Below, in pieces: positions 4,643 through 28,171 of a DNA stretch of 64,000 bases. The notes beneath the pieces are model-generated. The model had not been told where the DNA came from, did not search any database, and was given only the letters and a program-made list of their open reading frames with translations. The stretch comes from Candidatus Levyibacteriota bacterium. Its GTDB lineage: Bacteria; Patescibacteriota; Microgenomatia; Levybacterales; UBA12049. Location of the stretch: contig CAWBPM010000003.1 of the NCBI GenBank assembly GCA_963790825.1, positions 189,681-253,680 of the forward strand. Reading direction: 5' to 3'. Position numbers and translations under genes: made by a program. Position 1 is the first letter of the stretch. Each line of letters starts with the position of its first letter.

Positions 4643-5149
4643 CTATTGCATTATCCAACCGAGAAAATGAATTGAATCATAATAGCTTGTGTTATTATTT
4701 TTTATATTGAGTTTTTTACTCGTATTATGTCCGACGAGATACTCAGCGCTATAATCTCTACTATACCAGAAAAATGGGAAAAATCCATCATTTTGATTTC
4801 CACTTTCTAATGTATATCCATCGGGAGATTCAGCCGATGAATCAAGCGTAAGATTTTCTGCATTATCAAGAGTAACTGGCGTGCTTTCATTTGTCACAGC
4901 ATTATGAATATAAAGCTGCGGGTTCGATACATTATTCGGATAATAAGCATATTGAGGATTTACCGTAACGTGATTATTACTAACCGAATAGACTTGACTT
5001 GGGTAATAATCACCACCAATGCTATAGAGGAAGTTATATTTCGGTTGAAGAAAAAGTCCCGGGATATAAATACTGATTGCAACGAATAAGATCATCACGA
5101 TCGGTATTGCAAAACCAAGAATAAGAGGAAGATTCTTTTTCGAAATCAT
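4643..5149 (-). CDS. Membrane-anchored hypothetical protein
   Basis: Single N-terminal TM helix (LILGFAIPIVMILFVAISIYI). No recognisable domain. Confidence 0.4.
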   Translation of the reverse strand: MISKKNLPLILGFAIPIVMILFVAISIYIPGLFLQPKYNFLYSIGGDYYPSQVYSVSNNHVTVNPQYAYYPNNVSNPQLYIHNAVTNESTPVTLDNAENLTLDSSAESPDGYTLESGNQNDGFFPFFWYSRDYSAEYLVGHNTSKKLNIKNNNTSYYDSIHFLGWIMQ

Positions 5150-5291
5150 ACAATGAACGATAAACTCATCCTTAGTATTCCACGAAGCGGTTTTATTGTC
5201 AACATTAGGCTGTAGCCTGCAGTAACTATAAAGATCTAGATAAGAGAATTATTGACTTTGGTTAATACAAGAATCTGATTGGGATAGTGGT

Positions 5292-5355
5292 ATTTTTTAT
5301 CCTTCGACTTTGCTTAGGACTGCGCTAAGTTTAATTTGGAAAATGACAGCGCTTG
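5292..5355 (-). repeat. 64-bp copy of the secA 3' end (last 8 codons KRCHFPN* plus 39 nt of 3' flank); direct repeat of 18326-18389
   Basis: 60 of 64 nt identical to 18326-18389. The reverse complement reads aag cgc tgt cat ttt cca aat taa. An in-frame TAG lies just upstream, so it is only a gene-end remnant. Confidence 0.85.
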
Positions 5356-5414
5356 AAATGCTAGTCAGGTAGGGTACCTCACGTTAATTGGTTGAATTTG
5401 TTATGAACTGGTAT

Positions 5415-6071
5415 TTAATAGTGCTCTTCCAGATTAATGATGGCCAACTCTTTTAAATACTTTTCAGTTTTTTGTTTTTTTACCCATGTTTGCAAATAGT
5501 TTTTATCAAGATTTTTTTCTTGAATTTGATAAACAAAGGCTGCATCGATGAGATGTTTTTCAATTTTTGAGTCTTTATACCACAAAAGTTTAATAAGAAT
5601 TGTATCCTCTGCACTAGCAAAAGTCATTGACTGACCGAAAACATTGATGTTTTTTCTTCTTTTAAATCGGGATATATCAAATTCACTATGTGTCAACAAC
5701 CAAAAATCCAGCTTCAGCATTGTTGGAAGATGCAAGACATTAAATTGGAATTTATTATTAACAGCATCTTCGATCATTGACGTATCAACCATAAATTCAC
5801 TAAGAGGTAGAGATAAAAATGTTTGCTTTATACGTTCAATATCCTTTTTTTCTGCTTCAATGATAAAATCAATATCGTGTGAGGCTCGTGGTCTTCCATA
5901 AAAGATTACACTTAGGGAACCTGTAACCATATAGGGAATTTTTGCACCCTGTAAAAGCGAGGTAATATCTTTAAGCAGTTGCTCTTGTCCAAGATCTTTT
6001 CTGTGTCTTGCCATATTTTTTACCTTCTTCGCGAAGTTTTTTGACAAAGCAATTAAGACGGAAAGCCACAC
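5415..6071 (-). CDS. Pol-beta superfamily nucleotidyltransferase (minimal NTase fold)
   Basis: GSLSVIFYGRPRASHDIDFII matches the GS...hD[IL]D nucleotidyltransferase signature. The true start may be the internal MARHRK (about 6014). Confidence 0.55.
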   Translation of the reverse strand: MWLSVLIALSKNFAKKVKNMARHRKDLGQEQLLKDITSLLQGAKIPYMVTGSLSVIFYGRPRASHDIDFIIEAEKKDIERIKQTFLSLPLSEFMVDTSMIEDAVNNKFQFNVLHLPTMLKLDFWLLTHSEFDISRFKRRKNINVFGQSMTFASAEDTILIKLLWYKDSKIEKHLIDAAFVYQIQEKNLDKNYLQTWVKKQKTEKYLKELAIINLEEHY

Positions 6072-6171
6072 GCAACTTCTCTTCGGGTTTTTGTTTGGCG
6101 AGAAGATGAAGTATATCCTTAAATGAATAACGAACAGTCGTTCTTTGCATATTTCTCTCTGATATTACCAT
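5971..6171 (-). CDS. Small basic ORF overlapping the 5' end of the NTase gene; possible partner/regulator
   Basis: 66-aa ORF with K/R-rich C-terminus. Overlaps the annotated NTase start by about 100 nt. No homology recognised. Confidence 0.2.
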   Translation of the reverse strand: MVISERNMQRTTVRYSFKDILHLLAKQKPEEKLRVAFRLNCFVKKLREEGKKYGKTQKRSWTRATA

Positions 6172-6234
6172 ACTTCAAACGTATTATCTAGAAGATAAAA
6201 AGGGTGTATCATATGATGATGTAACTTGATATAG

Positions 6235-7029
6235 TTATGCTTTCTTTGCAACCAAAACGATTCTATGTCTTGGCAAATTTATTCCTTTTTCCGTTTGAAA
6301 CTTTTCTACATATTCTTCTAAGTATTTTCTATCTTTTTCCGAATCATAATCTTCGAAGATAGGAACTCCTTGCAAAAAAGTATCTAAATCTTTGTAAGAA
6401 AGATAATATTCGTTGTAATGAAAATCTTGGGCATAAACAATCTTAAAGCCTGCTTTTTTAGTATCCTCAACATCTCTATCTAAAACTGAATTATCCCATT
6501 TTCCGTAATTTTGCCCTCTTCCGAAAATAACCTTAATGTCTTTTGTATCTTTTTCTCCTATATCTATAGATAAAAAATATCCTCCGGGTTTTAGCATTTT
6601 ATAGAATAACTGATAAATGAGAACAGCTCTTCTTGCATAAATAATGTCAAAATAATTTTTAGGATAGTTTAATTCACGCGTATTTTTTTCAATAAACTCG
6701 ACATTTTTTATCCCTTTTTCTTTTTGAAGTTTTCTTGCTGCATTTAACATTAATCTTGAGGTATCATTGCCAATTACTTTTTTAAAATGTGGCGCAATTT
6801 CAAGAGTAAATCTTCCGTCTCCACACCCAGCATCCAAAACAACTTTTTCTTTCCAGCTTAGCCCTGCCAGTTTTTCTTTAAAAATTTCTTCGGGTGCACC
6901 TGATCGAAACTCCTGAATATATTGTGCAGGATTGGAATAATTTCCAAACTTTTTTGCTACTTTATCATAAAAATCTTGTGCCATATGAGAAATTATAGCA
7001 CTTTTAGCTTTTAAGAGGCTTAATCCCAA
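6235..7029 (-). CDS. Class I SAM-dependent methyltransferase (paralog of 27051-27800)
   Basis: VLDAGCGDGRFT motif I. About 65% identical to the product of 27051-27800 over its full length. Confidence 0.7.
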   Translation of the reverse strand: MGLSLLKAKSAIISHMAQDFYDKVAKKFGNYSNPAQYIQEFRSGAPEEIFKEKLAGLSWKEKVVLDAGCGDGRFTLEIAPHFKKVIGNDTSRLMLNAARKLQKEKGIKNVEFIEKNTRELNYPKNYFDIIYARRAVLIYQLFYKMLKPGGYFLSIDIGEKDTKDIKVIFGRGQNYGKWDNSVLDRDVEDTKKAGFKIVYAQDFHYNEYYLSYKDLDTFLQGVPIFEDYDSEKDRKYLEEYVEKFQTEKGINLPRHRIVLVAKKA

Positions 7030-7148
7030 TTGCGTAAATTCCGTTTTTCTTTATTCCATCCGCATATTCTGTATGAGAATTATCATATCATGTTACAAAT
7101 AATATTATCTAACCTATAGTTTACTTTTGGCCATTTCTGTGGTACAAT

Positions 7149-8954
7149 TTGCACAAGCTTATGCCAATCGAAAGAGAATACATAAAAACTAGTTTAGACC
7201 TACAATCAGCACCCGATAATATTGCTGTATTCACTGGCTGGCCTTACGCAAATGGACCAAGACATTTGGGGCACGGTGCAGCATTGCTAATGGGAGATGT
7301 ATTATCAAGATATTATAGAGCGAGAGGCTCAAATGTTTTAATGGTGAGTGGTACCGATGAGTACGGAACACCGAATCAAATCGCTGCAGAAAAAAGAGGC
7401 GTAAGTACACAAACTTATGTTGATGAAATGAGTCAGGTAATTAGAAATGATTTTAAAGAATTGGGAATGAGCTTTGATCATTTTAGTAGAACTACATCTA
7501 AGGAACATCAAAAAGTAGCTAGATCATTTTTCGTAGACTTACTTGAAAAAGGTTATATAACCGAGGGAGAAATGAAAACGGCATATGATTCTTTAACCAA
7601 TAGATCTTTACCCGATAGATATGTAGAAGGAATATGCCCACACTGTAAATATTCTGAGGCTAGGGGAGATCAATGTGATTCATGCGGAAATCTATTAGAT
7701 TCATTTGAATTAATAAACCCAAAATCAAAATTAACCAACAATCAAGTGCTTTTTAAAGATTCGCCTCAGTTATTTTTAAGGCTAGATTTACTTGGAGATC
7801 AGATAAAAAAATGGGTTATGGGTCAAAAAGATTGGAGAGCAAACGCAAAAAATCAAGCCTTAGGTATGGTAGATGATCTTAAAGCCAGATCTATTTCTAG
7901 AGATTTAGATTGGGGCATTCCAATTCCCGATGATGTTTTAAATGGAAAATATAGCGATAAAGTATTATATGTTTGGTTCGAGGCTGTTATAGGATATCTT
8001 TCTGCTTCAATGGAATGGGCAAAAGCAAAAGGAAACCCAGAGGAATGGAAAGATTGGTGGAAAAATCCACAAGCGAAACATTTCTATGCGATAGGAAAAG
8101 ATAATATCCCATTTCACACAGTAGTATGGCCTGGAATGTTAATGGGGCATAATGAAGGGTCTGAATCCCCTCTTCATCTACCTGATCAAATCGTGAGTGC
8201 TGAATATTTAACCTACGGGTCAGAAAAATTTAGCAGTAGTAGAGAGAATACATTGTTCATTAAAGATGCGCTTAAGTTATTAGATCCTGATGTACTTAGG
8301 TATTATTTAGTATCCGCTGGACCTGAAACAAAAGATGCGGAATTTAGCTTAGAAGAACTAGTTCGCAGAAACAATGAGGAATTAGTTTCTACATGGGGTA
8401 ATTTAGTAAATAGGGTTTTAACTTTTTCTTATAAGCATTTTGGTTCTGTCCCTACGCCTGATAGTATTCTTCCCCCTGAAGATCAACAGCTCCTTCAAGA
8501 ATTATGGAAAGGTTTTGAAACAACCGGATCTTTAATCAAACAGACTAAATTTAAGGCTGGGTTATCCAGTTTTATGGTAATGGCAAAAAATGTTAATAGA
8601 TTCTTAAATGAAAAAAAACCTTGGGAAAGTATAAAAACTAATCGATCGGATGCAGCTACTACAATGTTTACAGCTTTAAATGCAGTAGATATTCTTGCAT
8701 CAATTGCTTCTCCATTTTTGCCATTTAGTAGCGATAAAATTTTGAGTTATTTAGGATATGATAATGGGATAAAAGGAGAAATCATCGAAGATCAAATAGA
8801 CATTGAGGGAAATATAATTGATGTTTTAAAAGGAAATTATAATCTATCAAAAGGATTTTGGACTCCAAGTAGATTAACTCCGGGTCAAAAATTAAGAGAG
8901 CCAAAAATACTTTTTCAAATATTAGATGTTAATCAACTTAAGCAATCAATTTAA
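7149..8954 (+). CDS. metG: Methionyl-tRNA synthetase, paralog 1 (KMSKS motif reads KFSSS)
   Basis: PYANGPRHLGHG (HIGH motif), zinc knuckle CPHCKYSEARGDQCDSCG, LPDRYVEG, YVWFEAVIGYLSAS. The KMSKS position reads EKFSSSR. A TGGTACAAT extended -10 box lies 12 nt upstream. Confidence 0.85.
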   Translation: MHKLMPIEREYIKTSLDLQSAPDNIAVFTGWPYANGPRHLGHGAALLMGDVLSRYYRARGSNVLMVSGTDEYGTPNQIAAEKRGVSTQTYVDEMSQVIRNDFKELGMSFDHFSRTTSKEHQKVARSFFVDLLEKGYITEGEMKTAYDSLTNRSLPDRYVEGICPHCKYSEARGDQCDSCGNLLDSFELINPKSKLTNNQVLFKDSPQLFLRLDLLGDQIKKWVMGQKDWRANAKNQALGMVDDLKARSISRDLDWGIPIPDDVLNGKYSDKVLYVWFEAVIGYLSASMEWAKAKGNPEEWKDWWKNPQAKHFYAIGKDNIPFHTVVWPGMLMGHNEGSESPLHLPDQIVSAEYLTYGSEKFSSSRENTLFIKDALKLLDPDVLRYYLVSAGPETKDAEFSLEELVRRNNEELVSTWGNLVNRVLTFSYKHFGSVPTPDSILPPEDQQLLQELWKGFETTGSLIKQTKFKAGLSSFMVMAKNVNRFLNEKKPWESIKTNRSDAATTMFTALNAVDILASIASPFLPFSSDKILSYLGYDNGIKGEIIEDQIDIEGNIIDVLKGNYNLSKGFWTPSRLTPGQKLREPKILFQILDVNQLKQSI

Positions 8955-9049
8955 ATAAGTTTCATGATTATATCGCGAAAGTTAAGAATATATAAAAAAT
9001 CTTTCAATGCATATTTATTGCATGTCATAAGTATCTAGAAATATAAAAT

Positions 9050-10069
9050 ATGAAAATAATTGATTATTCCCAAAACTTTAACGCAATAATTAATAAAAAC
9101 AAGATCAAAAAAGCTTTAGAAATAAGCTGTCAACAATTATTTAGTTATCCTCATAAAGATAAAAAAGAATTAACTAAAGTAATAGCAAAAAGTTTAAAAT
9201 TGCCTGAGAAGTCAATCACAATAGGAAATGGAGCAACAGAAATTATATTTACACTCCCACGGTTTTTTGATAACAAAAATATATTAATTTTATCACCAAG
9301 TTTTTGGGAATATAGTGCCGCAAATATGATAGATAAAAATAACAATATCGACTTTCATATTTTGAAAGAGGCTGATAATTTCCAATTAAACTTTACTGAA
9401 TTTGAAAGCAAAATAAAAAATTTTTCAACAATATATCTATGTAATCCGAATAATCCTACTTCTACCCTGATTGACAAAACAAAGCTTTTACATATAATCA
9501 AAAAAAAGACTAAATCTATTTTTATTGTCGACGAAACATATCTAATTTTTCGCGAAGACTTTAAAGAACATTCACTTATTAAAGAAGCTATTTCTCTAAA
9601 TAATCTCTATATAGTTATATCATTTTCTAAGTTTTTTTCTATACCAGGCTTAAGAATTGGGATATTAATATCTAAACCAAAAAATATAGAAAAATTTAAT
9701 AAAATTACGATCCCTTATTTGATAAACCCTATGGCAGAAATAATAATTCCTTATTTATTAAAACAAAAGCGGTTTATTGAAAAAACCAAAAAATTTTATT
9801 CAAAACAAAGAGTTAAGGCTTATAAACTTTTTTTAAATAACTTTAACGGAAAATTAAAAATCTTTAAGCCAGAGGCTAACTTTATACTGGTTAAAATATT
9901 AACCCAAAAAACAAGTCAAGAAGTAGTTGCTAAGCTAAAAAAGAATGGAATAATCCTAAGAGATGGTTCAAGATTTAAAAATCTTGGTTACAAATGGCTT
10001 AGAATCGCAATTCGAACAGACGAGGAAATGTTAATTCTTATTAAAAATTTGAAAAGAATAATTGAATAA
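9050..10069 (+). CDS. Class I/II (HisC/CobD-like) PLP-dependent aminotransferase/decarboxylase-fold enzyme
   Basis: NPNNPTS motif and SFSKFFSIPGLRIGI (PLP-lysine motif). The 339-aa size fits the CobD/HisC subfamily. Very AT-rich coding sequence. Confidence 0.6.
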   Translation: MKIIDYSQNFNAIINKNKIKKALEISCQQLFSYPHKDKKELTKVIAKSLKLPEKSITIGNGATEIIFTLPRFFDNKNILILSPSFWEYSAANMIDKNNNIDFHILKEADNFQLNFTEFESKIKNFSTIYLCNPNNPTSTLIDKTKLLHIIKKKTKSIFIVDETYLIFREDFKEHSLIKEAISLNNLYIVISFSKFFSIPGLRIGILISKPKNIEKFNKITIPYLINPMAEIIIPYLLKQKRFIEKTKKFYSKQRVKAYKLFLNNFNGKLKIFKPEANFILVKILTQKTSQEVVAKLKKNGIILRDGSRFKNLGYKWLRIAIRTDEEMLILIKNLKRIIE

Positions 10070-10080
10070 TTCTTCTATTT

Positions 10081-11085
10081 ATGAATGAAAAAGAAACCCT
10101 AAAAAACATAATTTTAATCAATGATAATTCTTTAATTGATAGTCATACTCATTGTGGTTTTGGTCATTACAACCTAATACAACAAAGATATCCGACCAGT
10201 CAAAGTGTAATAGACTTAGAATCAAAAACCGAATTGGCTGGCATTGATTTTGTTATTTCGTTCCCTTTTCCTGGAGAATTATATTATTTCGATATATTTG
10301 CAAATTCTGAAAGTGATTTGCCACAACATCCTCCAATTGAAAAATTTCCATATCATTTTGCAAATAGACAATTGTTATATGAGATTTCATTATTTGGCAA
10401 TAACAGAATTATACCATTCGCAAATATATATCCAAATCACGAAGAGGGGCAACAAGCTGATTATCTCGATGAATTAGCAAAACAAGGATTAATTTTTGGT
10501 CTTAAATTGCATACTCTAGCTACTCAGTATTCCGCTGAAGCTCTTGCCAAATCTCCATTTTTGGACGTTTCTCGTGCTCATTCGCTTCCGGTTATAATTC
10601 ATTCAGGTCCAGATGATATTTCTCATCCCATGAATGTTGTTGAATTAGCTGAAACAAATCCAGATATTCGATTTTGCATTGCACATATTGCTCGGTTTGA
10701 AAAACAAGTTTTTGATTACATTAGAAATAATAATTTACAAAATGTATTTATAGATACCGCCCCCTTGCTTTCCTTATGTAAACTTACACAACTTGATATA
10801 AATAATGGAATTGGCGGTGAAAAACTAAATTTACCGTATGATTCTCCTCAGCAAACTTTAGTAGAACTTTGTAAACTTATGCCTGGACATATTGTATGGG
10901 GAACAGACGAACCCTGGACGACTATTACAGACGACAAACAAAAGCAAATACTTATGAAGGCAAGATATGGAGACGAAGTAGCTATACTTAGATCTATTCC
11001 GCCTAAATTAACAAAAGAGATTGCACATGATAATCCAATTAAATTACTCTTCAGTAATTATGTACCATCTGAAATTCAATTATGA
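10081..11085 (+). CDS. Amidohydrolase-2 family (TIM-barrel metal-dependent hydrolase/decarboxylase)
   Basis: N-terminal IDSHTHCGFG (D-x-H-x-H metal ligands), internal HSG and CIAHIA histidines, about 330 aa. Confidence 0.5.
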   Translation: MNEKETLKNIILINDNSLIDSHTHCGFGHYNLIQQRYPTSQSVIDLESKTELAGIDFVISFPFPGELYYFDIFANSESDLPQHPPIEKFPYHFANRQLLYEISLFGNNRIIPFANIYPNHEEGQQADYLDELAKQGLIFGLKLHTLATQYSAEALAKSPFLDVSRAHSLPVIIHSGPDDISHPMNVVELAETNPDIRFCIAHIARFEKQVFDYIRNNNLQNVFIDTAPLLSLCKLTQLDINNGIGGEKLNLPYDSPQQTLVELCKLMPGHIVWGTDEPWTTITDDKQKQILMKARYGDEVAILRSIPPKLTKEIAHDNPIKLLFSNYVPSEIQL

Positions 11086-12548
11086 TATTAACTAAAAAAA
11101 ATAGAAAACAAGCGGAATTATTTTTTAATGACGTAATTAAATTAGGTTTGGATTTCAAATTACAAAATTCGGTTACCCCAAAATACTTAACAGAAAAAAA
11201 TGGGAAAAAATTAATAAAAAAACTTCCAATTAAGGGAAAATCTGAAAAAGAGATTTTAGAAGAATTTAAAAAAGAGATTTTACCCTATTGCACAAATTTT
11301 AGTAGTAATAATTTTATGGGTTTTCCAGATTCAGGCAATTCAGTTGCTGCAATTGGAGCTTCGTTTTTATATAACCTCTTGCAACAAAATCTAATTAATC
11401 AAAGTTTTTGTGGACCTTCTGCAACTTTTATAGAAATTTCCGTAATTAGATGGTTAAGAGAAACTGTAGGTTATAAAAATGGTTCTATATCAGACATTTG
11501 GGATGTAGGTGGAATAATAACTCCTGGTGGAACAGCTAGTAACGCTATTGGGGCACTTCTTGCTAGAGAAAATAGATTTCCCAATGCAATGGAAAATGGA
11601 ATATCAGACCTTGATAGATGCTGGATGATTGTTCCTAAGGGAATTGGTCATTATAGTATAAAAAGTGGTCAAATGTGGGTGGGTTGTGGAAACAAGTTAA
11701 TTGAAGTAGAAACAAATAATTTTAGATACGACCTGAATGATCTTAAAGCCAAGCTGGAGAAGAACCGAGGAAAAATTATGGGTCTTGTGGCATATGCTGG
11801 AGACAGTAGAACGATGACTGTTGACAATTTTCAAGCAATTGCAAAATTAGTTAAATCAATTGATCCAACCATATGGCTACATGCAGACGCTTGTCATGGT
11901 TTCAGTTTAGGTTTTAGTAAAAATCTAAAATATAAACTAAAAGGAATCGAAAAATTTGACAGCATAACCATGGATCCTCACAAAGTATTAGCTACACCAT
12001 ATGCCATTAGTGCTCTATTGGTAAAAGATCCTCATAAACTAAAAACAATTACTAGTTTGTCAGATTTAATTATGCAAGAAAAATTTGCTTTTGGGCAAAT
12101 TACCCCCTTCTTAGGTAGTAGATCCTGGGAATCTCTTAAACTGTGGTTTTTTATGAAAAACTTGGGTAAAGAAGGTTTAGATGATCTTATCCAAAAAAGA
12201 CATGAGTTAGCAATATATTTATCTGACAGATTAAAGATTGATTCAGACTTTATTGTTTTAAATGAAGTTGAGATTAATTCAGTTGTATTTATGTATAAAG
12301 GAAAAATAAAATTAAATGAAATAGATAAATTAAATTTAATAAATAAAAAGATACATGAACTTATAATAAAAGAGGGAAAGTATCATTTACACCAATTTAG
12401 TATTCCAGACTCCGGAAGAATAAAAAGCGGAGAGATAATCTACCCACAAAGATATATGTGTGGAAATCCAAACACAACAAAAAAAGATATACTTGAAATG
12501 GTCGAATATGTAAGAAAATTAGGTAAAAAAAATGAAAAATTACTATGA
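11082..12548 (+). CDS. Group II pyridoxal-dependent decarboxylase (GAD/CSAD/DABA-decarboxylase type)
   Basis: SITMDPHKVLATPYAISALLVKD matches the S-x-x-x-N/DPHK...ALLV[KR]D signature of GAD/CSAD-type decarboxylases. HADACHGF present. Overlaps the upstream gene by 4 nt, which suggests an operon. Confidence 0.7.
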   Translation: MILTKKNRKQAELFFNDVIKLGLDFKLQNSVTPKYLTEKNGKKLIKKLPIKGKSEKEILEEFKKEILPYCTNFSSNNFMGFPDSGNSVAAIGASFLYNLLQQNLINQSFCGPSATFIEISVIRWLRETVGYKNGSISDIWDVGGIITPGGTASNAIGALLARENRFPNAMENGISDLDRCWMIVPKGIGHYSIKSGQMWVGCGNKLIEVETNNFRYDLNDLKAKLEKNRGKIMGLVAYAGDSRTMTVDNFQAIAKLVKSIDPTIWLHADACHGFSLGFSKNLKYKLKGIEKFDSITMDPHKVLATPYAISALLVKDPHKLKTITSLSDLIMQEKFAFGQITPFLGSRSWESLKLWFFMKNLGKEGLDDLIQKRHELAIYLSDRLKIDSDFIVLNEVEINSVVFMYKGKIKLNEIDKLNLINKKIHELIIKEGKYHLHQFSIPDSGRIKSGEIIYPQRYMCGNPNTTKKDILEMVEYVRKLGKKNEKLL

Positions 12549-13207
12549 AAATTTCCCTGAAGAAAATAATTTTTGATTTTGAACCATATTTTAAAGAATA
12601 CTTTAGAAACAGAAAATATTTTGTATGTTTGTATGGTTCACATTTAACCAACAAAGCAAATGTACATTCTGACATAGATATCTTTATTGCACTACCTAAA
12701 TACACAAAGACTGATTTAAAAATTATTAAAAAATTTATTATTAATTATCATATTAAAAACAAATTAGAACTTGACAACGAAGTTCCATACGCAAATAAAT
12801 TACTAATTACCTATTCAGATTTGGATAAAGCTGTAAAGTTAGGTGGATTAAGTATTGAAAACGGGAAGTTAATTGTTCCTCCTATAATAAAAACTAAAAA
12901 ATTTTTGTCTTCCAAAAAAGTTAAATTAAGACTTGCATTTAACGCTTTAACTTCACCGCACAAATTTTTTGGTACAGATTTAGATCAATACTTTAAAATG
13001 AAAGAATTTGCAGAAAGTAATTTATTTTATCTATCCAAAACGTTTACAATCAAAAAAAAATTATCAATTAATAATTTAGTAGAAACTTTAATTAAAGGGG
13101 CGGATGGTGAAACTGGAGAGTTATATTTAGGTTATAAATCACACCCATTAGTATTAAAATATTTAAATAATATTATTAAAATCGAAAATCAAAGATCGGT
13201 TAAATAA
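12545..13207 (+). CDS. Pol-beta superfamily nucleotidyltransferase (small-molecule NTase-like)
   Basis: YGSHLTNKANVHSDIDIFIALP matches the GS-x(n)-hD[IL]D NTase motif. 4-nt overlap with the upstream gene. Confidence 0.55.
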   Translation: MKISLKKIIFDFEPYFKEYFRNRKYFVCLYGSHLTNKANVHSDIDIFIALPKYTKTDLKIIKKFIINYHIKNKLELDNEVPYANKLLITYSDLDKAVKLGGLSIENGKLIVPPIIKTKKFLSSKKVKLRLAFNALTSPHKFFGTDLDQYFKMKEFAESNLFYLSKTFTIKKKLSINNLVETLIKGADGETGELYLGYKSHPLVLKYLNNIIKIENQRSVK

Positions 13208-13351
13208 ATCATGATTCAAAATAAAATCGAGACATAAAATTATTTTAGGAAAATTATATTTACTGATTTAGTTTTATTAATTGAATATTTCTTATAACCC
13301 CTATTCTGGATTTATATAATATTTAATACTATAATATATTAACGAAGCTAA

Positions 13352-15043
13352 ATGAGTATAAATAAAACAGCTAATAAAGAAAAAAGATTTATAGGGGTTG
13401 CCTGGCCTTACGTTAATGGCGACTTACATATAGGACATCTGGCAGGTTATCTACTTCCAGCAGATATTTTTGCGAGATATTCACGATCAGCGGGCTATGA
13501 TGTTTTAATGGTATCGGGATCTGACTGCTTCGGAACACCTATAACCATAGAGGCAGATAAACAAGGTGAGTCACCGAAAAATATTGTTAAAAAATATCAT
13601 TCCAAAGATGTGTATTTATTTAAGAGAATCCTACATCTTTCTTATGATATATATACAAAAACAAATACCCAAAATCACATCAGTGTTGTACAAGATATGT
13701 TTCTTAAACTTTTAGAAAATGGTTTGATTTCTATTAATACTACGAAACAATATTACTCCCCCATTGATAAAAAGTTCTTACCCGATCGATATGTAGAAGG
13801 AGAATGTAAAAATTGTGGATTCTTAGAAGCGCGTAGCGATCAATGTGATAATTGCGGAAAAGTTCTCGATACGGGAGATATTAAGAATCCAATAAGTAAG
13901 TTAACTGGTGCAAATGTTGAATTAAGAGATACTCAACATTATTTTATAAATTGGCCAAAATTAGAAAAGAATATTGAAGAATATGTTAATAAAAATGGAC
14001 AGCAATGGAAGAAATGGGTCTTCGCTGAAACTCTCGGATGGCTAAAGCAGGGCTTAAAACCCAGAGCAATTACTAGGGATTTAGATTGGGGCGTTCCTTT
14101 ACCCATAAAAAGGATGCCAAAAAATTTAATAATAAATAATATTGAAAATAAACGTTTATATGTTTGGTTTGATGCAGTAATAGGATATTTATCCGCTTCT
14201 ATTCTATGGTCAAAAGAAACTGGCAAAAATTGGGAAATATTTTGGAAAGATAATTCTACTCGTCATTATTACTTTATGGGTAAAGACAACCTTATATTTC
14301 ACACTATTTTTTGGCCTGGGCAACTAATGGGTTACGATAAAAATCTTAAATTACCTGACATCGTAAGTATAAACATGTTTTTAAACTTAGATGGTAATCA
14401 ATTTTCAAAAAGTCGTGGCGTAACAATTTCAATTGAAGAAATTGTTAGAAAATTTGGTAACGACTCTGTTAGATTTTACTTAACACTTATCATGCCAGAA
14501 ATCAAAGATTCTAGCTTTAATTGGAATGATTTTTATAAACAAAATGATGATATATTGGTTGGAAATTTAGGTAATTTTATACATCGTGTTTTGTCAATTT
14601 CATTTAATTCTGGGACCAAGCAGCTTGTTAAAACAGAAATCAATTCAAAAATTAAATCAAATATTACAAACGCATTTAATAAATCCCATGAATATTTAAA
14701 CAATTGTGAATTTAAAAAATATTTAAATTCTATATTAGATTTATCAACAGTTGGAAACCAATACCTAAATGATATTAAATTATGGGAAATAAGAAAATCT
14801 AACAAATTAAAGTTTGACCAAGAACTTGTTCAATTATTTTCTATTATTATATCCATTGGGTATTTGATCTCTCCTTTAATGCCGGAAAGTTCTGATAAAA
14901 TTTTCAAAATGATTGGATTAGAAACTAATATGCCTTGGCCCAACCATAATTATGAAATTGATAATATAAGAGATTTATTATCTAAAGTAAAAATTAATAA
15001 GAAACCAATAATATTATTCTCAAAAATAACAACTAAATATTAA
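13352..15043 (+). CDS. metG: Methionyl-tRNA synthetase, paralog 2 (KMSKS motif reads QFSKS), embedded in the AT-rich operon
   Basis: WPYVNGDLHIGH, zinc knuckle CKNCGFLEARSDQCDNCG, LPDRYVEG, YVWFDAVIGYLSAS, QFSKSRG. About 40% identical to paralog 1 by eye. Confidence 0.85.
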   Translation: MSINKTANKEKRFIGVAWPYVNGDLHIGHLAGYLLPADIFARYSRSAGYDVLMVSGSDCFGTPITIEADKQGESPKNIVKKYHSKDVYLFKRILHLSYDIYTKTNTQNHISVVQDMFLKLLENGLISINTTKQYYSPIDKKFLPDRYVEGECKNCGFLEARSDQCDNCGKVLDTGDIKNPISKLTGANVELRDTQHYFINWPKLEKNIEEYVNKNGQQWKKWVFAETLGWLKQGLKPRAITRDLDWGVPLPIKRMPKNLIINNIENKRLYVWFDAVIGYLSASILWSKETGKNWEIFWKDNSTRHYYFMGKDNLIFHTIFWPGQLMGYDKNLKLPDIVSINMFLNLDGNQFSKSRGVTISIEEIVRKFGNDSVRFYLTLIMPEIKDSSFNWNDFYKQNDDILVGNLGNFIHRVLSISFNSGTKQLVKTEINSKIKSNITNAFNKSHEYLNNCEFKKYLNSILDLSTVGNQYLNDIKLWEIRKSNKLKFDQELVQLFSIIISIGYLISPLMPESSDKIFKMIGLETNMPWPNHNYEIDNIRDLLSKVKINKKPIILFSKITTKY

Positions 15044-16037
15044 AGACTTTTACTGCCTCTTCTTCAGAGAGTGGATAAAAACAAAAAACCTTTCTATCGT
15101 TTTTAGAATAATCCAACAAATTTAGAATCTTTCCATTCCCATTAACCAAAACTAATCTTGAGTTATTTGAATCTGCTATGAGATATTTACTACCAGCTAT
15201 CTCAATAGCATCTTGAACCCAATTAAAATTATTTTTAATCTCCTTAATTATTTTGAATTTTTCTGTTAAAACTAACACTCTATTATTTAAAGTATCACTT
15301 ACAATATATCCTAAATTTGAATATCTTATATTGTGTGGACATTTTAATCCGCTTAATTTAGTATTCCATTTTTTTGTATTCTTATCTATCTCTATTACAC
15401 TCCCCTGATGAAATAAAGTTGCTAATATTTTATTATCACCAATTTCTAAGCAACTATTTATGTGTGTTACATGCTCTGGCGTAGCCGTTACTACTTTAGT
15501 ATAGTCACAATTTTTATCTATAACTCTTCTATTTCCTTGTGGATTTAATGCAAAACCATTCTCTGTTGCAAGCCAATCCCAAACAAAATTACTAAAATTA
15601 GAATTATTAAATTCAAGTATACTATCCGTACCTGTTGAAACAACAAATAAGTTGCCATTTTTACTTTTTGATAACCCATGTAAATCATTAAACATTTTGT
15701 TTGTGTATTGTTCTTGGACTATTCCATTCGTTATAAACTTTATAGTTTTGCCGCTTGCACAAAAAAGACCACCACGCTCAGTGTCATATTCTAGACCAGT
15801 TGCCCATGGTAATGGAATTTCGGATATAAAGCCTTTATCTAATCTTGTTGCATCTATTAAGCAAACAGCACCACCTAGTTGCGTATCTTCAGTTTTAATA
15901 GTGGTTGATTTTGATCGACCGAGGAATTTTTTATGCTCTGCATCTCTTTGTTTCCATTGTTGCCTAAGTATTTTAAGACCTTTAGGATCTGTTGCTAAAA
16001 AACTAACAGCAAATAACTCTTTTTTTATCTTTTTCAT
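15033..16037 (-). CDS. NHL-repeat / six-bladed beta-propeller-like protein
   Basis: Repeated hydrophobic-[DN]-x-x-N-x-R-[VL] blocks (IVSDTLNNRVLVL, LIADSNNSRLVLVN). Convergent with metG2, overlapping it by 11 nt. Confidence 0.35.
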   Translation of the reverse strand: MKKIKKELFAVSFLATDPKGLKILRQQWKQRDAEHKKFLGRSKSTTIKTEDTQLGGAVCLIDATRLDKGFISEIPLPWATGLEYDTERGGLFCASGKTIKFITNGIVQEQYTNKMFNDLHGLSKSKNGNLFVVSTGTDSILEFNNSNFSNFVWDWLATENGFALNPQGNRRVIDKNCDYTKVVTATPEHVTHINSCLEIGDNKILATLFHQGSVIEIDKNTKKWNTKLSGLKCPHNIRYSNLGYIVSDTLNNRVLVLTEKFKIIKEIKNNFNWVQDAIEIAGSKYLIADSNNSRLVLVNGNGKILNLLDYSKNDRKVFCFYPLSEEEAVKVFNI

Positions 16038-16121
16038 AGTCTTATTTATATTAAAAATTTAATAATATAGCATATTTATAATTACAATCCTTATTTTGGT
16101 TTACTAATATATAAATATGTA

Positions 16122-16328
16122 TTACCTTTTTATACCCCAAGAAATTTTATTCCAACTCCTCTCATGAAAGTAATAGAATACTAATTTTATAAGTCCATCT
16201 AAACCACCTATGCTTAATGAAATTAAAAGTTTATGTGTAAAAAAGAAAACAATACTTGCAGTTATAAAGGAAGCAATAATTCTCCAGGTGATTGTTTTAA
16301 TTATACTTCTTAGACGATGTTCATTCAT
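16122..16328 (-). CDS. Small two-helix membrane protein (DUF2061-like)
   Basis: 68 aa, with TWRIIASFITASIVFFF and a second hydrophobic helix. Immediately downstream of the sat/cysC fusion. Confidence 0.35.
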   Translation of the reverse strand: MNEHRLRSIIKTITWRIIASFITASIVFFFTHKLLISLSIGGLDGLIKLVFYYFHERSWNKISWGIKR

Positions 16329-16354
16329 ATGTAATATAATTTACAAAATTAAAA

Positions 16355-18013
16355 CTAATTCTTAATATATTTATTTTTTTGTAAAAAATTAATTATTTCA
16401 TTTACACAGGAGGATACACTTCTATTTGCAGTATTTATATTTAATTCTGAATTTTCAGGCACCTCATAATTATCATCTTTGCCTGTAAGCCCTTTAAGCT
16501 TACCAATGCTTTGCATTTTATATAAACCTTTTTCATCTCTTTTAATACATATATTTAAGGGTGTAGATACATATATCTCAACATAGTTTCCGTTTTTTTC
16601 TATCATGAACCTATTTTTTAATCTAGCTTCATTATACGGAGCTATAGCGGCACAAATAGTTATTCCTCCATGTCTTGTTACCTCATTAGCTACAAATCCA
16701 ATACGAGCAATATTTGTATCTCTATCCTCCTTGCTAAACCCTAAGCCTTTAGATAGATTTTGCCTTACGATATCTCCATCAAGTAATGTAATATTTTTTG
16801 TTTGCATTTCAAGCAGTTTAAAATATAACATTCTGGCTAGAGTAGACTTACCTGAAGACGGTAAACCTGTAAAAAAAATGGTTAATCCTTCTTTTTTCTG
16901 ACGATTAATATTATTTTTTATTTCTTTAATTACTTCCGGAAAAGAAAACCAAGACGGAATAGTCTCATTTTCTATAATCATTTTTCTAAATTGAGTACCT
17001 GAAATACTTTTAACAGTTTGATTTTTTTTTACCTCATTAATTGGCAAATAATCATTTATTTCCTCAACATAAACCATCTCATTAAAAAAAATCGGAACTA
17101 TGCCAATTTCATCTTTATATTTTTCAACAAGTTTCTGGGCCTCATAAGGATCGTAATAGGGTTTGCCATTCTTATCGCTTCCAGGACTTGCGTGATCTCT
17201 CCCAACTATAAAATGCGTACATCCATAGTTCTTTCTGATTATTGCATGGAGAATTGCTTCTCGTGGTCCGGCCATTCTCATTGCAAGAGGAAGAAGACTC
17301 AAATATCCAAAATCATTAATATATTTGTTATATAAGTAAATATAACATTTTGTTCTGGTAATATAATCTATGTCACCCTCTTTAGTCTCACCTACAGAAG
17401 GGTGCAATAGTATCTTTGCATGTTGTTCATTGGCCGCTCTTTTTATCATTGCAAAATGAGCCTTATGAAGAGGGTTTCTGGTTTGAAATCCTATTATTCT
17501 TTTCCATCCGAGTTTTTTAAATATTGTTTTTAATTCTTTAGGAGAATGTCTAAACTCAGAAAAATCAGATCTTTCTATATCGTGAATTTTTATTATTTTA
17601 CCTCCAACATAATATTTTCCGGTATTGAAAAATAATTGATTAACCCCAGAGTGATTTTTATCAGTAGTTCCATAAACTTTATTTGCTTCCAATATTTTAT
17701 TTGGTTCATAAATTGATTCGATAATTAAAAAGGCGATTGGTTTTCCAAATTCATCACAAAGTATAATTTTTTGTCCTACTGAGTATTTATTTTTATCATC
17801 AATATCTAAAACAATAGGAATTGGCCAGATACTTCCATTGCTTAAATGCATATTATTAACCACGCTTTCATAATCCATTTTATTTAGAAAACCTTGTAAT
17901 GGAGAAAACCCACCATTCACAATAAGTTCCAGGTCACATATTTGTCTTGTATTCAAAGTCAATCTTAATAGATCTGACTTTGATTTATTCCGAGAAGAGG
18001 AATTATTAATCAT
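16355..18013 (-). CDS. sat/cysC: Bifunctional sulfate adenylyltransferase (ATP sulfurylase) / adenylylsulfate kinase (PAPS synthase)
   Basis: N-terminal PUA-like region plus QTRNPLHKAH and HFIVGRDHAS (ATP-sulfurylase motifs). C-terminal GLPSSGKSTLA P-loop and LLDGDIVRQ (APS-kinase motifs). Confidence 0.85.
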   Translation of the reverse strand: MINNSSSRNKSKSDLLRLTLNTRQICDLELIVNGGFSPLQGFLNKMDYESVVNNMHLSNGSIWPIPIVLDIDDKNKYSVGQKIILCDEFGKPIAFLIIESIYEPNKILEANKVYGTTDKNHSGVNQLFFNTGKYYVGGKIIKIHDIERSDFSEFRHSPKELKTIFKKLGWKRIIGFQTRNPLHKAHFAMIKRAANEQHAKILLHPSVGETKEGDIDYITRTKCYIYLYNKYINDFGYLSLLPLAMRMAGPREAILHAIIRKNYGCTHFIVGRDHASPGSDKNGKPYYDPYEAQKLVEKYKDEIGIVPIFFNEMVYVEEINDYLPINEVKKNQTVKSISGTQFRKMIIENETIPSWFSFPEVIKEIKNNINRQKKEGLTIFFTGLPSSGKSTLARMLYFKLLEMQTKNITLLDGDIVRQNLSKGLGFSKEDRDTNIARIGFVANEVTRHGGITICAAIAPYNEARLKNRFMIEKNGNYVEIYVSTPLNICIKRDEKGLYKMQSIGKLKGLTGKDDNYEVPENSELNINTANRSVSSCVNEIINFLQKNKYIKN

Positions 18014-18325
18014 AATCTAATTAGGAACCAATTATATCAAATTAAGGCACGAAACTATAGCTGTTTATGAATTATGAGGGAATAATAATTTTTATTTAAT
18101 AATCTAAATTTTTCTTAATTCATTTGTGCCGCATATCTTGAGTTATACGACATGAATTTAAAACCATATGGTCACGGATGATTATAAACTTAGACTTATA
18201 GAAAATTTTAGGGTTTTAAAAATATCCGAAATTACAAAAATTTACAAGGCTGGGAAATTTCGTCTATGTGGCACTAAAAATAAACGATTAGATTGTAAAA
18301 TCAAGCTATCAATTAGGATAATGAC

Positions 18326-18389
18326 ATTTTTTGTCCTTAGACTTTGCTCAGGACTGCGCTAAGTTTAATTGGGAAAATGACAGCGCTTG
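18326..18389 (-). repeat. Native secA 3' end plus 3' flank; direct repeat of 5292-5355 (att-like boundary)
   Basis: Covers the secA stop codon at 18365-18367, the last 7 codons and 39 nt downstream. 94% identical to 5292-5355. Contains the inverted repeat CTTAG-N7-CTAAG. Confidence 0.85.
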
Positions 18390-25871: not shown

Positions 25872-25929
25872 TCCAGACTCCCCGGCAATTTAGTTTAGCC
25901 TATTAAATCAATCTTTTTTTTTGTCCTCT

Positions 25930-27014: not shown

Positions 27015-27050
27015 CTTCCTGGACGTTAAACTTTTTGCTATACTTTGGAT

Positions 27051-27800: not shown

Positions 27801-27916
27801 GGTTATCTAATAAGACTAAGCTGGTTCTAATGTCATCTAGTGCCCGCAGTAGAGTTGGATTATGTAAGTACAGACCGGAGTTCCTAAATTTTTTGTGCTT
27901 AATTAAGAAGCTTTAT

Positions 27917-28171
27917 TTAATACTTATAAATTTCTCTTCTATGTCCAACCCTGAGAACTATAATATTCTTATCATCTACATCGAAAATGATTCTATAATT
28001 CCCAATTCTCCATCTGTAAGTCCCGATGGAAGACTCTGTTAGTTTTTTAGAAGTAGAAAGTGGGTCTTTTGAGTATTCTTTGATTTTTTTACCAATTCTT
28101 TTTTTAACTACAATATCTAATTTTTTAATATCTTTAAACGCAGTATTAGTATATAGAAGCTTATAAGACAT
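27917..28171 (-). CDS. RelE/ParE-family type II toxin
   Basis: 84 aa, C-terminal YRIIFDVDDKNIIVLRVGHRREIY typical of RelE/ParE. Start overlaps the antitoxin stop. Confidence 0.65.
   Translation of the reverse strand: MSYKLLYTNTAFKDIKKLDIVVKKRIGKKIKEYSKDPLSTSKKLTESSIGTYRWRIGNYRIIFDVDDKNIIVLRVGHRREIYKY

Follow-up and report, generated by a model that had tools for sequence, protein, structure and literature searches.

The window, a 64-kb stretch of DNA from an organism described as an uncultured Levybacteria (CPR) bacterium, carries a block of foreign-looking genes just after secA. The secA gene (18365..21061, minus strand) encodes an 898-aa protein with Pfam matches to SecA_DEAD, the SecA P-loop, SecA_SW, SecA_PP_bind, and SEC-C; it is still intact, and SerRS-SecA synteny is kept among Levybacteria relatives. 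Its last eight codons, here T1 (AAGCGCTGTCATTTTCCCAATTAA, 18365..18388, minus strand), read KRCHFPN-stop and form the proximal copy of an attachment-like 24-mer, whose first 12 nt are the core AARMRNTGYCAY. T1 is followed by a 32-nt spacer, S (18333..18364, minus strand), which contains a hairpin (GTCCTGAGCAAAGTCTAAGGAC, 18333-18354). Next, 32 nt past the real stop, comes T2 (AAAAAATGTCATTATCCTAATTGA, 18309..18332, minus strand), an older orphan secA end that reads KKCHYPN-stop. The short-range T1-T2 arrangement is also present in L037, L053, L108, L110, and other loci, and the spacer is conserved 3′ of secA in L037, L053, L014, and L031.

The same three units recur on the far side of the block, again on the minus strand: a displaced secA end, T1′ (AAGCGCTGTCATTTTCCAAATTAA, 5331..5354), a copy of the spacer and hairpin, S′ (5299..5330), and a more decayed copy of the old orphan, T2′ (AAAAAATACCACTATCCCAATCAG, 5275..5298; 20 of 22 specified positions match). 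The sequence-only reading had reported 64-bp repeats (5292-5355 and 18326-18389, 94% identical), described as the last eight codons of secA plus 39 nt of 3′ flank. We counted four mismatches in these 64 nt, as that identity implies, and found the repeat to be larger. Repeat finding in the window extended it to 78 nt at 90% identity, while codon-level reading gave 80 nt (5275-5354 and 18309-18388, ~90% identical), past which an extension revealed no significant similarity. The eight codons were correctly assigned; the remainder is not plain flank, but the 32-nt spacer with its hairpin and the older, decayed copy of those codons. Identity between the repeat copies falls off away from the breakpoint, from 23/24 in T1 to ~29/32 in S and 19/24 in T2. 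Since an in-frame TAG lies two codons upstream of T1′, the distal copy is not part of a gene, in line with the earlier view that it is non-functional. Directly 5′ of T1′ is a 28-nt junction motif, M (GTGAGGTACCCTACCTGACTAGCATTTC, 5355..5382, minus strand), which is unique within the window. No terminal inverted repeats were found for the segment, and the core region contains only a weak palindrome (GCATTTC / GAAATGC), with no clear recombinase core architecture.

Coincidental similarity, membership in a generic dispersed repeat family, and a chimeric assembly joined at a conserved k-mer are all extremely unlikely explanations of the repeat. The hairpin of S is indeed a generic small repeat, with nhmmer matches in many places, including other phyla and 38748-38774 of the window (its predicted fold is weak, z ~-1.6), and the window's distal junction is supported by one assembly only. 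However, the 31-nt repeat core occurs exactly twice in the window, with none expected and no matches in 100 shuffles, and the whole T-S-T unit is found only twice in the 64 kb. Nor does the whole repeat form a generic family in ~2 Mb of related loci, where, among isolated exact direct repeats of at least 18 nt, gene-end duplication was seen for secA ends only. Moreover, enrichment of the 24-mer is confined to the region downstream of secA and to the secA strand, and L081 (Logan ERR11594402), an independent assembly from another sample, reproduces the secA-proximal junction, together with the cargo order. Equivalent orphan junctions are present in independent assemblies of other organisms.

The DNA between the repeats (5383..18308, 12.9 kb of cargo) differs in composition from its surroundings. 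Its GC content is 29.9%, compared to 38.2% in the left flank and 40.2% in the right, so the lower GC noted from the letters holds, and its tetranucleotide distance from the rest of the window is 0.39, whereas ordinary 4-kb windows give 0.13-0.20. GC3 is 0.18-0.23 over 6235 to 18013 and 0.28-0.40 in the flanks. Adjoining the distal junction is an AbiEii-like, toxin-type nucleotidyltransferase gene (5415..6071, minus strand; Pfam AbiEii, 3e-5), whose GC3 of 0.29 is nearer the host value. Beyond the repeat, the host flank carries a gene for a 168-aa protein (4643..5149, minus strand), then one for a DUF2157 protein (3635-4639), with a promoter-like site (TTGACA-17-AATACT) at 5174-5202. This pair is conserved in the Levybacteria relatives L139, L166, L167, and L168 and does not adjoin secA in the closest relatives from the collections, where the nearest SecA is only 70-75% identical to that of the window. 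With relatives at this distance, the search of the collections yielded no empty site from a close relative.

The cargo includes two methionyl-tRNA synthetases that are 35% identical to each other. MetRS1 (7149..8954, plus strand) is of non-CPR type; it has only two close homologs (73-74%), one of which sits in a like cluster in L164, while identity to the next best does not exceed 50%, and those with a named source come from Chloroflexi or Actinobacteria. MetRS2 (13352..15043, plus strand) is CPR-type, 60-70% identical to Patescibacteria MetRS, and its closest homologs (69-70%) lie in similar clusters of L162 and L163. Between them is an operon on the plus strand (9050..13207) whose products were assigned by Pfam as a class I/II aminotransferase (9050-10069), Amidohydro_2 (10081-11085), a PLP-dependent decarboxylase (11082-12548), and a Pol-beta-type nucleotidyltransferase (12545-13207); the same gene set is present in L162, L163, and L164. 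On the minus strand are a SAM-dependent methyltransferase (6235..7029; Pfam), which is paired with MetRS1 in L165 as well and has a paralog at 27045-27800 (inverted repeats I1-I4, 73-82% complementary, the two longest arms 78-79%), a protein of 334 aa that weakly matches the NHL repeat (15033..16037), and a bifunctional ATP sulfurylase/APS kinase, which makes PAPS (16355..18013; Pfam). The L081 contig encodes an identical ATP sulfurylase/APS kinase in matching gene order. Apart from this near-identical strain, the cargo genes had no homologs within 10 kb of secA in ~160 related loci, and the two-MetRS cluster was found on other contigs away from secA. If the genome has no other MetRS, this "island" now carries an essential gene.

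Could the bracketed genes be native, the secA 3′ region having been duplicated or rearranged locally to give the repeat? MetRS2, an ordinary CPR-type enzyme, may be the housekeeping one, and gene order 3′ of secA is poorly conserved in Levybacteria anyway. Against this stand the 10-point drop in GC, a tetranucleotide distance about twice background, the non-CPR affinity of MetRS1, and the occurrence of the cargo cluster elsewhere in other contexts. In addition, the junction of motif and orphan borders unrelated cargo in other lineages. We consider a native origin very improbable. Instead, the segment is very probably an acquired insertion bounded by a displaced secA end. Composition, a repeat that is not generic, the lack of a recombinase, and the presence of the cargo cluster away from secA all support the insertion scar that had been proposed at the secA 3′ end, with the suggestion of an element that restores the gene end and, having no integrase, may be decayed or mobilized in trans.

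The recurrence of orphan secA ends downstream of secA, on its strand, is a new result of the comparison. In 102 distinct loci of the Microgenomates type, 28 copies of the core AARAARTGYCAY lie downstream of secA on its strand, while similar amounts of sequence yielded two copies on the opposite strand and four and four upstream. In 37 non-Microgenomates loci there were no downstream copies on the secA strand, the sole match being upstream on the opposite strand. An orphan secA end lies 0.6-13 kb away in ~16 of 93 loci, or about one in six, and several of these junctions are reproduced in independent assemblies (L038/L123/L124, L013/L100/L121, L024/L135, and L107/L111). The architecture recurs in ~16 other Microgenomates lineages with a common breakpoint codon and a shared junction motif. 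In all motif-linked loci compared (the window, L038, L020, L096, L028, L013, and L110), the orphan starts at one fixed codon, although the length of the identity block differs among loci (12, 24-26, or 80 nt). Some orphans match the codon choices of their own host (24/24 in L038, 25/25 in L020, and 25/26 in L096), while others encode a different C terminus (KCHYPSLI-stop versus KCHYPVISA-stop in L028; also L013), the pattern that a resident end and an imported one would be expected to give.

Most orphans are directly preceded by the 28-nt motif. The window's copy is identical at 23 of 28 positions to the motif at the same place in the Amesbacteria locus L038, and the motif is conserved 5′ of orphans from Levybacteria to Amesbacteria, between which SecA is only 57% identical. 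An nhmmer profile of motif plus 24-mer detected ~10 distinct sites at E <=1e-6, to which a motif-only profile added L096 and L030; all of these sites are downstream of secA on the same strand. We read the motif as the element-side arm of an attachment site. Some junctions consist of motif, 12-nt core, and unrelated DNA (L028 at 14091 and the left junction of L110) and look like attP-type or attL-type hybrids. The site also holds arrays in L024, L028, and L096. The cargo across loci is varied, including Fic, HicAB, BrnTA, and AbiEii-type toxin modules, purB, a class II RNR, glycosyltransferases, and the two-MetRS cluster.

Comparison of related loci revealed occupied and empty versions of the site. 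The 3.5 kb inserted in L110 lies exactly at an orphan 24-mer, which the relative L108 has unbroken, with 92% identity between the two over the secA 3′ end and 90% over the downstream flank. In L082/L089 and in L028/L048/L031, different DNA occupies one and the same slot. In two other pairs of close relatives (L141/L009 and L114/L112), the last 200-300 nt of secA are replaced and an insert is present, with no orphan. Thus, homologous recombination anchored in secA is certainly also at work.

These mosaic 3′ ends favor a second explanation, in which cassettes pass between Microgenomates with no dedicated recombinase, through natural transformation with RecA recombination or through homology-facilitated illegitimate recombination. 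Here, secA would serve as the long left arm and the orphan 24-mer, matching the secA end of every recipient, as the short right arm; the junction of motif and orphan would have been born once by an illegitimate event and have hitchhiked since. A double crossover in secA and between donor orphan and recipient T1 would give exactly the order T1-S-T2 ... M-T1′-S′-T2′, and the decay of identity away from the breakpoint is what donor and recipient versions of the region would be expected to show. However, homologous recombination does not create junctions of a 12-nt core and unrelated DNA at one position in independent loci (L110 and L028), and an arm of 24 nt is about as short as RecA-dependent exchange allows. 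It also leaves unexplained a non-coding 28-nt motif that is 70-85% conserved beside the orphan despite full turnover of the cargo and a SecA identity of 57%. We therefore regard this explanation as rather doubtful.

A third explanation invokes a homing endonuclease. In the 0.65-kb L107/L111 insert, the only gene encodes a 200-aa HNH protein with a homing-endonuclease-associated repeat (PF18780, 8e-12) and abuts the secA stop; the gene is also present in L127. A free-standing homing endonuclease might cut the conserved secA terminal target (AARAARTGYCAYTAYCC) in naive genomes, and repair from the donor would copy a recoded secA end, the endonuclease gene, and neighboring cargo, leaving the old end downstream. 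Consistent with an immune, recoded target, the current secA end of L107/L111 and L127 (KHCHYPN-stop) and the orphan disagree at most synonymous positions. But the endonuclease occurs in only two of ~16 distinct occupied loci, is absent from the window's insert and the whole 64 kb, and would leave unexplained the conserved motif at the distal edge of the cargo. For homing to work in a bacterial chromosome, expression from incoming DNA is needed as well. We consider this explanation improbable.

As suspected from the sequence-only reading, no recombinase domain was detected by Pfam in any of the segment's ten larger ORFs. We also found no tyrosine recombinase in the window or in any CPR locus examined, and no recombinase gene in any insert at the secA-end site. 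Since neither this insert nor others at the site carry a recombinase, the elements would behave as passive cassettes that are moved by a function supplied from elsewhere; integron cassettes, Xer-dependent elements, and the microcin H47 island are analogous. The best reading of the sequence is that 5383-18308 was mobilized in trans and integrated site-specifically, restoring secA and displacing its old end. The sequence-specific attachment site for the 12.9 kb would be the last eight secA codons, with the breakpoint at the first base of the K codon in K-[KR]-C-H and a shared core of ~12 nt (AARAARTGYCAY). The incoming DNA may have carried its own secA terminus, along with the spacer and old orphan found after secA in Levybacteria, so that secA stayed intact, while the resident terminus (T1′-S′-T2′) was pushed 13 kb downstream, behind the element's conserved 28-nt end motif. 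The simplest route to the 80-nt duplication would be a donor circle, excised between the secA end and a distal site and carrying S-T2 plus cargo, whose integration at the end of secA took place in a recipient that already had S-T2. Ordinary homologous recombination involving secA and the orphan might further spread a cassette that already exists. What we infer is the mechanism: that the recombination was site-specific, acted in trans, and involved the two-cassette circle. Against it count the variable length of the identity block, the lack of a clear recombinase core architecture and of terminal inverted repeats, and the mosaic secA ends of some related pairs; taken whole, the statement that horizontally acquired DNA was integrated site-specifically at the secA end is slightly favored. 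The displaced last eight codons of secA mark a spot at which about one in six related genomes has an insertion, none with a recombinase gene of its own.

Integron cassettes, Xer-dependent elements (IMEX), and the pdif modules of Acinetobacter plasmids lack a recombinase and are moved in trans. Like them, the secA-end elements carry no recombinase, form arrays split by copies of a short site, and frequently contain toxin-antitoxin cargo. However, the secA site has no adjacent intI and no attC-type R″/R′ boxes, is not at the replication terminus, and does not resemble the 11-6-11 dif sequence. Its copies are in direct orientation, whereas pdif sites are inverted, and its cargo ranges from 0.65 to 13 kb and includes operons. 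In Allomyces mitochondria, an endonuclease-linked event reportedly replaced the 3′ end of atp6 and left the native end downstream (a finding attributed to Paquin et al. 1994). Although the endonuclease gene is absent from the window's insert and most others, there, as proposed for secA, an imported terminus replaced a resident one that survives as a downstream orphan, and an HNH homing-endonuclease gene occupies this very secA site in L107 and L127.

Integrase-borne islands in conserved gene ends (the 3′ ends of tRNA and tmRNA genes; dusA) resemble the secA segment in their fixed crossover in a conserved gene, their identity block that starts at the crossover and reaches at least the gene end, and their highly diverse cargo, with the gene staying functional. 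They differ in that an integrase gene is their one universal feature (PMC4482086) and is universally absent at the secA site, and in that dusA-specific islands target the 5′ end (PMC4482086), the secA segment the 3′ end. The microcin H47 island of E. coli is 13 kb long, has extensive imperfect direct repeats and no integrase or excisionase, is excised and integrated by host-supplied functions without homologous recombination, and has attachment sites that are widespread in E. coli (PMC3191183). With its similar size, imperfect direct repeats, and lack of its own recombinase, it sets a precedent for a recombinase-less island that uses host functions. In contrast to microcin H47, mobility at secA is inferred from sequence, the secA elements have a conserved 28-nt element-side motif, insertion restores the target, an essential gene's coding 3′ end, and many unrelated cargoes have used this one site in lineages of a phylum-level group.

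The window's secA gene (18365-21061, minus strand) is intact and encodes the SEC-C motif (Pfam). A reading made from the sequence alone had placed 64-bp direct repeats of the secA 3′ end on both sides of the adjacent DNA, and these are present: 5292-5355 and 18326-18389 differ by 4 mismatches in 64 nt. A repeat search gave a longer match of 78 nt (90% identity), and the full direct repeat spans 5275-5354 and 18309-18388 (~90% identical). The secA-proximal copy, read on the minus (secA) strand, consists of T1 (18388-18365; AAGCGCTGTCATTTTCCCAATTAA), which codes KRCHFPN-stop, S (18364-18333), a 32-nt spacer containing the hairpin GTCCTGAGCAAAGTCTAAGGAC, and T2 (18332-18309; AAAAAATGTCATTATCCTAATTGA), which codes KKCHYPN-stop. 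T2 is an older orphan, that is, a displaced extra copy of the gene end. The distal copy, also on the minus strand, holds the counterparts T1′ (5354-5331), S′ (5330-5299) and T2′ (5298-5275), and no significant similarity between the two window copies extends past T2; the repeat is thus an 80-nt composite. Variant bases of the distal copy are CCA instead of CCC at 5337, A at 5315 and G at 5305. In the window, the repeat's 31-nt core has exactly two occurrences, where shuffled sequence predicts 0. An identical secA-T1-S-T2 junction and the same cargo order were found in an independent assembly from another sample (Logan contig ERR11594402, L081).

As with islands of integrases that target gene 3′ ends, repeats derived from the target bracket the insert. 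The gene end is also restored, as secA is intact and the orphan end T1′ lies downstream, preceded by an in-frame stop (TAG), as the sequence-only reading had reported. We found no RNA gene at the junction: ARAGORN detected none and Rfam gave chance-level matches only. The whole window (1-64000) lacks tRNA genes, and no Rfam family reaches the gathering threshold in it. A diversity-generating retroelement was rejected, since no RT domain was found by Pfam and the repeat mismatches are of mixed types rather than adenine-specific.

The hairpin in S has the form CCTGAGC(N3-4)GTCGAAGG. Further copies occur at window 38748-38774 (minus strand), in comparison loci L019, L038, L152 and L156, and in others; they sit at unrelated places, some within coding regions, and also in other phyla. 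As a small repeat, the hairpin S is generic; the T-S-T unit is not. A CRISPR-like arrangement of two 24-mers (the last eight secA codons) around a ~30-nt spacer was dismissed because this spacer is the conserved generic hairpin and not variable.

The DNA between the repeat copies (5383-18308, 12.9 kb) has a GC content of 29.9%, compared to 38.2% and 40.2% for the flanks, and its tetranucleotide distance from the rest of the window is 0.39, while ordinary 4-kb windows give 0.13-0.20. GC3 is 0.18-0.23 from the methyltransferase (6235) through the sulfurylase (18013) and 0.28-0.40 outside. The lower GC noted earlier is therefore borne out. Pfam assigned its ten larger ORFs to an AbiEii-like nucleotidyltransferase, a SAM methyltransferase, a methionyl-tRNA synthetase (MetRS1, 7149-8954), an aminotransferase, an Amidohydro_2 protein, a PLP-dependent decarboxylase, a Pol-beta-type nucleotidyltransferase, a second synthetase (MetRS2, 13352-15043), an NHL-like protein and a bifunctional ATP sulfurylase/APS kinase.

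The two synthetases are 35% identical to each other. MetRS2 is of the usual Patescibacteria type (60-70% identity). MetRS1 has two close homologues (73-74%); beyond these, identity is at most 50%, and matches with a name come from Chloroflexi or Actinobacteria. For both synthetases, the closest homologues lie in clusters of the same type on other groundwater contigs (L162, L163 and L164), which encode a MetRS, an aminotransferase, an amidohydrolase, a decarboxylase, a nucleotidyltransferase together with a kinase, a glycosyltransferase and a sulfotransferase. In these three clusters, we found neither an adjoining secA nor sites resembling the secA end. Since the cluster recurs there away from secA, the cargo is a coherent accessory module found in varied genomic contexts.

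In the window, the MetRS genes flank an operon of the aminotransferase, amidohydrolase, PLP decarboxylase and nucleotidyltransferase genes, with the PAPS-synthesis gene close by. The association of MetRS with such an operon recurs on groundwater contigs L162, L163, L164 and L165, with kinase, glycosyltransferase, epimerase and sulfotransferase genes. The two-MetRS cluster may be a biosynthetic cluster that carries a resistance or biosynthetic MetRS paralogue; the placement of this unusual PAPS-linked cluster on mobile DNA bears on that question.

SecA relatives place the genome in Candidatus Levybacteria (Microgenomates, CPR), with best SecA identities of only 70-75% among 185,579 species genomes and JGI metagenomes. 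Synteny upstream (groEL ... murJ, SerRS, SecA) is kept in these relatives, and the DNA downstream of secA differs in almost every one. The host genes beyond the distal repeat, encoding a 168-aa protein and a DUF2157 protein, are kept as a pair in L139, L166, L167 and L168. In L139, secA lies 5.9 kb from the pair, with other genes between; in the other three, secA is not within the 10 kb fetched around it. Searches through flank genes and SecA relatives (nearest SecA 70-75%) yielded no empty site for the window's lineage. Exact protein look-ups with SecA, the 168-aa protein and DUF2157 gave no match, and only the sulfurylase returned a second contig, L081.

The genes murJ (24213-25871) and groEL (30114-31760) adjoin each other in relatives L004, L005, L007, L037 and L052; in the window they are separated by ~4.2 kb (25872-30113). 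This stretch has a GC of 30-37% and contains one IS copy, a methyltransferase gene, a ParE/Phd toxin-antitoxin pair (27917-28419) and a 325-aa unknown protein. The methyltransferase gene (27045-27800) is inverted relative to that of the island (6235-7029), with 78-79% nucleotide identity over the longest aligned stretches. The IS is present in two identical 1.08-kb copies (25929-27013 and 47189-48273), each encoding a 342-aa rve-type DDE transposase; their identity suggests recent activity. They are flanked by the 4-bp duplications CCTC and CCTA, and the second abuts the alaS start. The IS ends and 4-bp duplications are unrelated to the secA site.

To examine other loci, mostly secA loci of related Microgenomates, we took the secA end of each and sought second copies downstream. 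Matches of 25/25 nt, 24/24 nt and 25/26 nt were found 1.8 kb away in L020, 0.94 kb away in the Amesbacteria locus L038 (= L123 = L124) and 0.74 kb away in L096, respectively, and L028 and L022 had matches of 16-18 nt. A downstream match of at least 16 nt was present in 7 of 145 loci; 4,350 control queries from within secA gave such a match in only 4 of the 145. No match of at least 16 nt was in inverted orientation. Among 102 Microgenomates-type loci (duplicates removed), the 12-nt core that begins the 24-mer (AARAARTGYCAY) occurred 28 times downstream on the secA strand, twice downstream on the opposite strand, and 4 and 4 times upstream, the compartments being of similar size. In 37 loci of other phyla, the core was absent downstream on the secA strand, and the sole match was upstream on the opposite strand.

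After near-duplicate loci and one chance hit were discounted, ~16 of 93 distinct loci had an orphan 0.6-13 kb away, and nine loci had one within 130 nt of the secA stop. A survey of isolated exact direct repeats of at least 18 nt in ~2 Mb of loci found gene-end duplication of this kind for secA only, in agreement with the expectation that the repeat does not belong to a generic family. The proposal that the repeats are a scar of insertion is supported, and the structure belongs to a recurrent, sequence-specific insertion platform that Microgenomates have at the secA end. Literature searches revealed no earlier description of secA-end integration in CPR.

The inserts share a junction. In the motif-linked loci compared, the orphan starts at the K codon of K-[KR]-C-H and is directly preceded by a 28-nt motif (consensus rTGwGGTACCCTAtttgACTAgCATTTC; window 5382-5355). 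The window and L038 motifs are identical at 23 of 28 positions, although the SecA proteins are only 57% identical. An nhmmer profile of the motif plus 24-mer matched (E ≤1e-6) the window, L038, L053, L024, L127, L033, L020, L013, L047 and an internal site of L028, and a motif-only profile added L096 and L030 (E 0.002-0.003); every site was downstream of secA on the secA strand. As the motif's end, GCATTTC, is the reverse complement of the target's GAAATGC, a short imperfect palindrome spans the breakpoint.

Several junctions combine sequences of two origins. The L028 orphan codes KCHYPSLI*, while the gene end codes KCHYPVISA*, and the L013 orphan likewise differs from its gene end. Their sequences suggest that the L024, L032 and L033 orphans also code a C-terminus different from that of the current secA. 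Such differences fit one end being resident and the other imported. At the internal L028 site and the left junction of L110, motif or host sequence is followed by the 12-nt core and then by unrelated DNA. These junctions have the form expected of attP-like and attL-like hybrids, and they argue against a target duplication of fixed length. L024, L028, L096 and the window each hold an array of two or three sites.

Two other sequences lie near these sites. CTTGATTnnACAATCTAA follows secA-end 24-mers in the window (18283-18300), L013, L093 and L032; we rejected it as a left-end motif following T2 because it also occurs ~400 nt upstream of secA in L012, L027, L052 and L115, and it is probably promoter-like host sequence and not an element end. 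Strings resembling tRNA T-loops (GGATTCGAAC; GGGATTCGAACC, TGGATTCGAAC) lie just cargo-side of the motif in L127 (~4415-4445) and L013 (~11980-12000), where neither ARAGORN nor Rfam detected a tRNA.

Comparison of L110 with L108 provided occupied and unoccupied states. The loci are 92% identical over the secA 3′ end and 90% over the downstream flank, and differ by 3.5 kb, which in L110 is inserted exactly at the short-range orphan 24-mer, with AAAAAATGCCAC on both sides. In L108 itself, the secA end is duplicated perfectly (24/24) within stop+1 to +56, the copies only 30 nt apart (AGTTTGGAGAATTTCTTGCGCGCTTCGTGTTT); it may reflect either a minimal insert or a footprint at this site. Between common left and right flanks, the DNA of L082 differs from that of L089; likewise, L028, L048 and L031 differ from one another.

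Not all remodeling leaves an orphan. In L141/L009 and L114/L112, the last 200-300 nt of secA are replaced along with the insert and no orphan is present; thus, homologous recombination anchored in secA also remodels the region. In these pairs, the tail is ~80% identical or barely alignable, secA just upstream is 92-98% identical and the downstream flank 93-100%, which indicates that the tail was swapped by recombination together with a small insert. A recombinase-free route, in which transforming DNA recombines by double crossover at secA and at the orphan 24-mer, would yield the final structure equally well and probably has a share in spread, but it explains neither why the motif is conserved nor how the hybrid junctions arose. 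Taken together, the fixed breakpoint, the motif, the hybrid junctions, the arrays and an identity block of variable length, which extends from the breakpoint in the direction of the gene end and beyond it, are the pattern of site-specific integration into a gene 3′ end with gene restoration.

Inserts at other loci encode Fic, HicAB, BrnTA and DUF433/PIN-like toxin-antitoxin modules, adenylosuccinate lyase, class II ribonucleotide reductase, a radical-SAM protein, glycosyltransferases, an AAA ATPase and several unknown proteins, and 14 of 17 have a GC below that of the conserved upstream DNA. As the sequence-only reading had stated for the bracketed DNA, no recombinase accompanies the cargo: Pfam found no recombinase domain or integrase beside the att site among the ten larger ORFs (at least 80 aa), and a jackhmmer search that started from XerD detected no tyrosine recombinase, either in the window or at any CPR locus. 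With recombinase genes consistently lacking, the inserts are passive cassettes. The sole mobility-type gene at the site encodes an HNH protein with a homing-endonuclease-associated repeat and abuts the secA stop in L107/L111 and L127. This 200-aa endonuclease is encoded on the strand opposite secA (L107 11877-12479, = L111; L127 2297-2899), and the current secA end there (KHCHYPN*) is recoded compared with the orphan. On the less likely reading that a homing endonuclease drives these events, the secA-end sequence AAAAAATGCCACTATCC would be the cleavage target of the L107 protein. For the window, where this endonuclease gene is absent, a free-standing homing endonuclease is judged unlikely.

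Other classes of element were also considered. Integrons carry intI beside attI, and their cassettes end in attC with R′′/R′ (GTTRRRY) boxes. No tyrosine recombinase lies near the window's site, arguing against an integron or CALIN array, and the junctions are unlike attC: they read ...NTTC|AARAAR, and 12-80 nt of the site are duplicated, not 6-7 nt. A dif or replication-terminus site, as used by IMEX, was rejected because GC skew has the same sign on both sides of the secA end in 42 of 53 loci, and the 24-mer lacks the 11-6-11 organization of a Xer/dif site. Insert ends showed no significant terminal inverted repeats in any of 10 loci, and an inverted motif core directly follows the secA stop in L028 and L048 only. 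Lack of terminal inverted repeats, with duplications of 12, 24-26 or 80 nt, argues against a DDE transposon or IS composite. An exact 20-mer of the repeat was absent from the metagenome_contigs and viral_contigs sets, as were three motif patterns from viral_contigs; thus, no episomal or phage form was found in the sets searched.

A route to the window's structure can be proposed. A donor circle, formed between a secA end and a distal site and carrying S-T2, the cargo and the motif, would have integrated into the secA end of a recipient in which S-T2 was already present; the ~10% divergence of the repeat copies would then be donor-versus-recipient divergence. More broadly, and tentatively, since we consider it somewhat less probable than its negation, Microgenomates may possess a cassette-capture system. 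Its att site would be the 12-nt core in the last eight codons of the essential secA gene; cassettes, ranging from toxin-antitoxin pairs to the 13-kb two-MetRS cluster, would carry the 28-nt arm and never a recombinase, would form arrays, and would be moved with one putative trans-acting enzyme. If true, this would be an integron-like or IMEX-like platform in function, anchored on a housekeeping gene.

To our knowledge, almost nothing is known of gene exchange in small uncultured CPR bacteria. A hot spot with a precise breakpoint and junction motif can be recognized by a simple signature: downstream of secA, the motif precedes AARAARTGYCAYTAYCC. With this signature, accessory genes can be catalogued, transfers followed from lineage to lineage, and the putative recombinase sought through co-occurrence. 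An enzyme acting in trans on a 12-24-nt target in a universally conserved gene, should one exist, could be turned into a site-specific insertion tool. In their apparent integration into a gene 3′ end and restoration of the gene, the secA-end inserts resemble islands that target tRNA genes and some that target protein genes (PMC4482086). The closest documented case to inserts lacking a recombinase is the microcin H47 island, a 13-kb element that moves by functions supplied by its host (PMC3191183).
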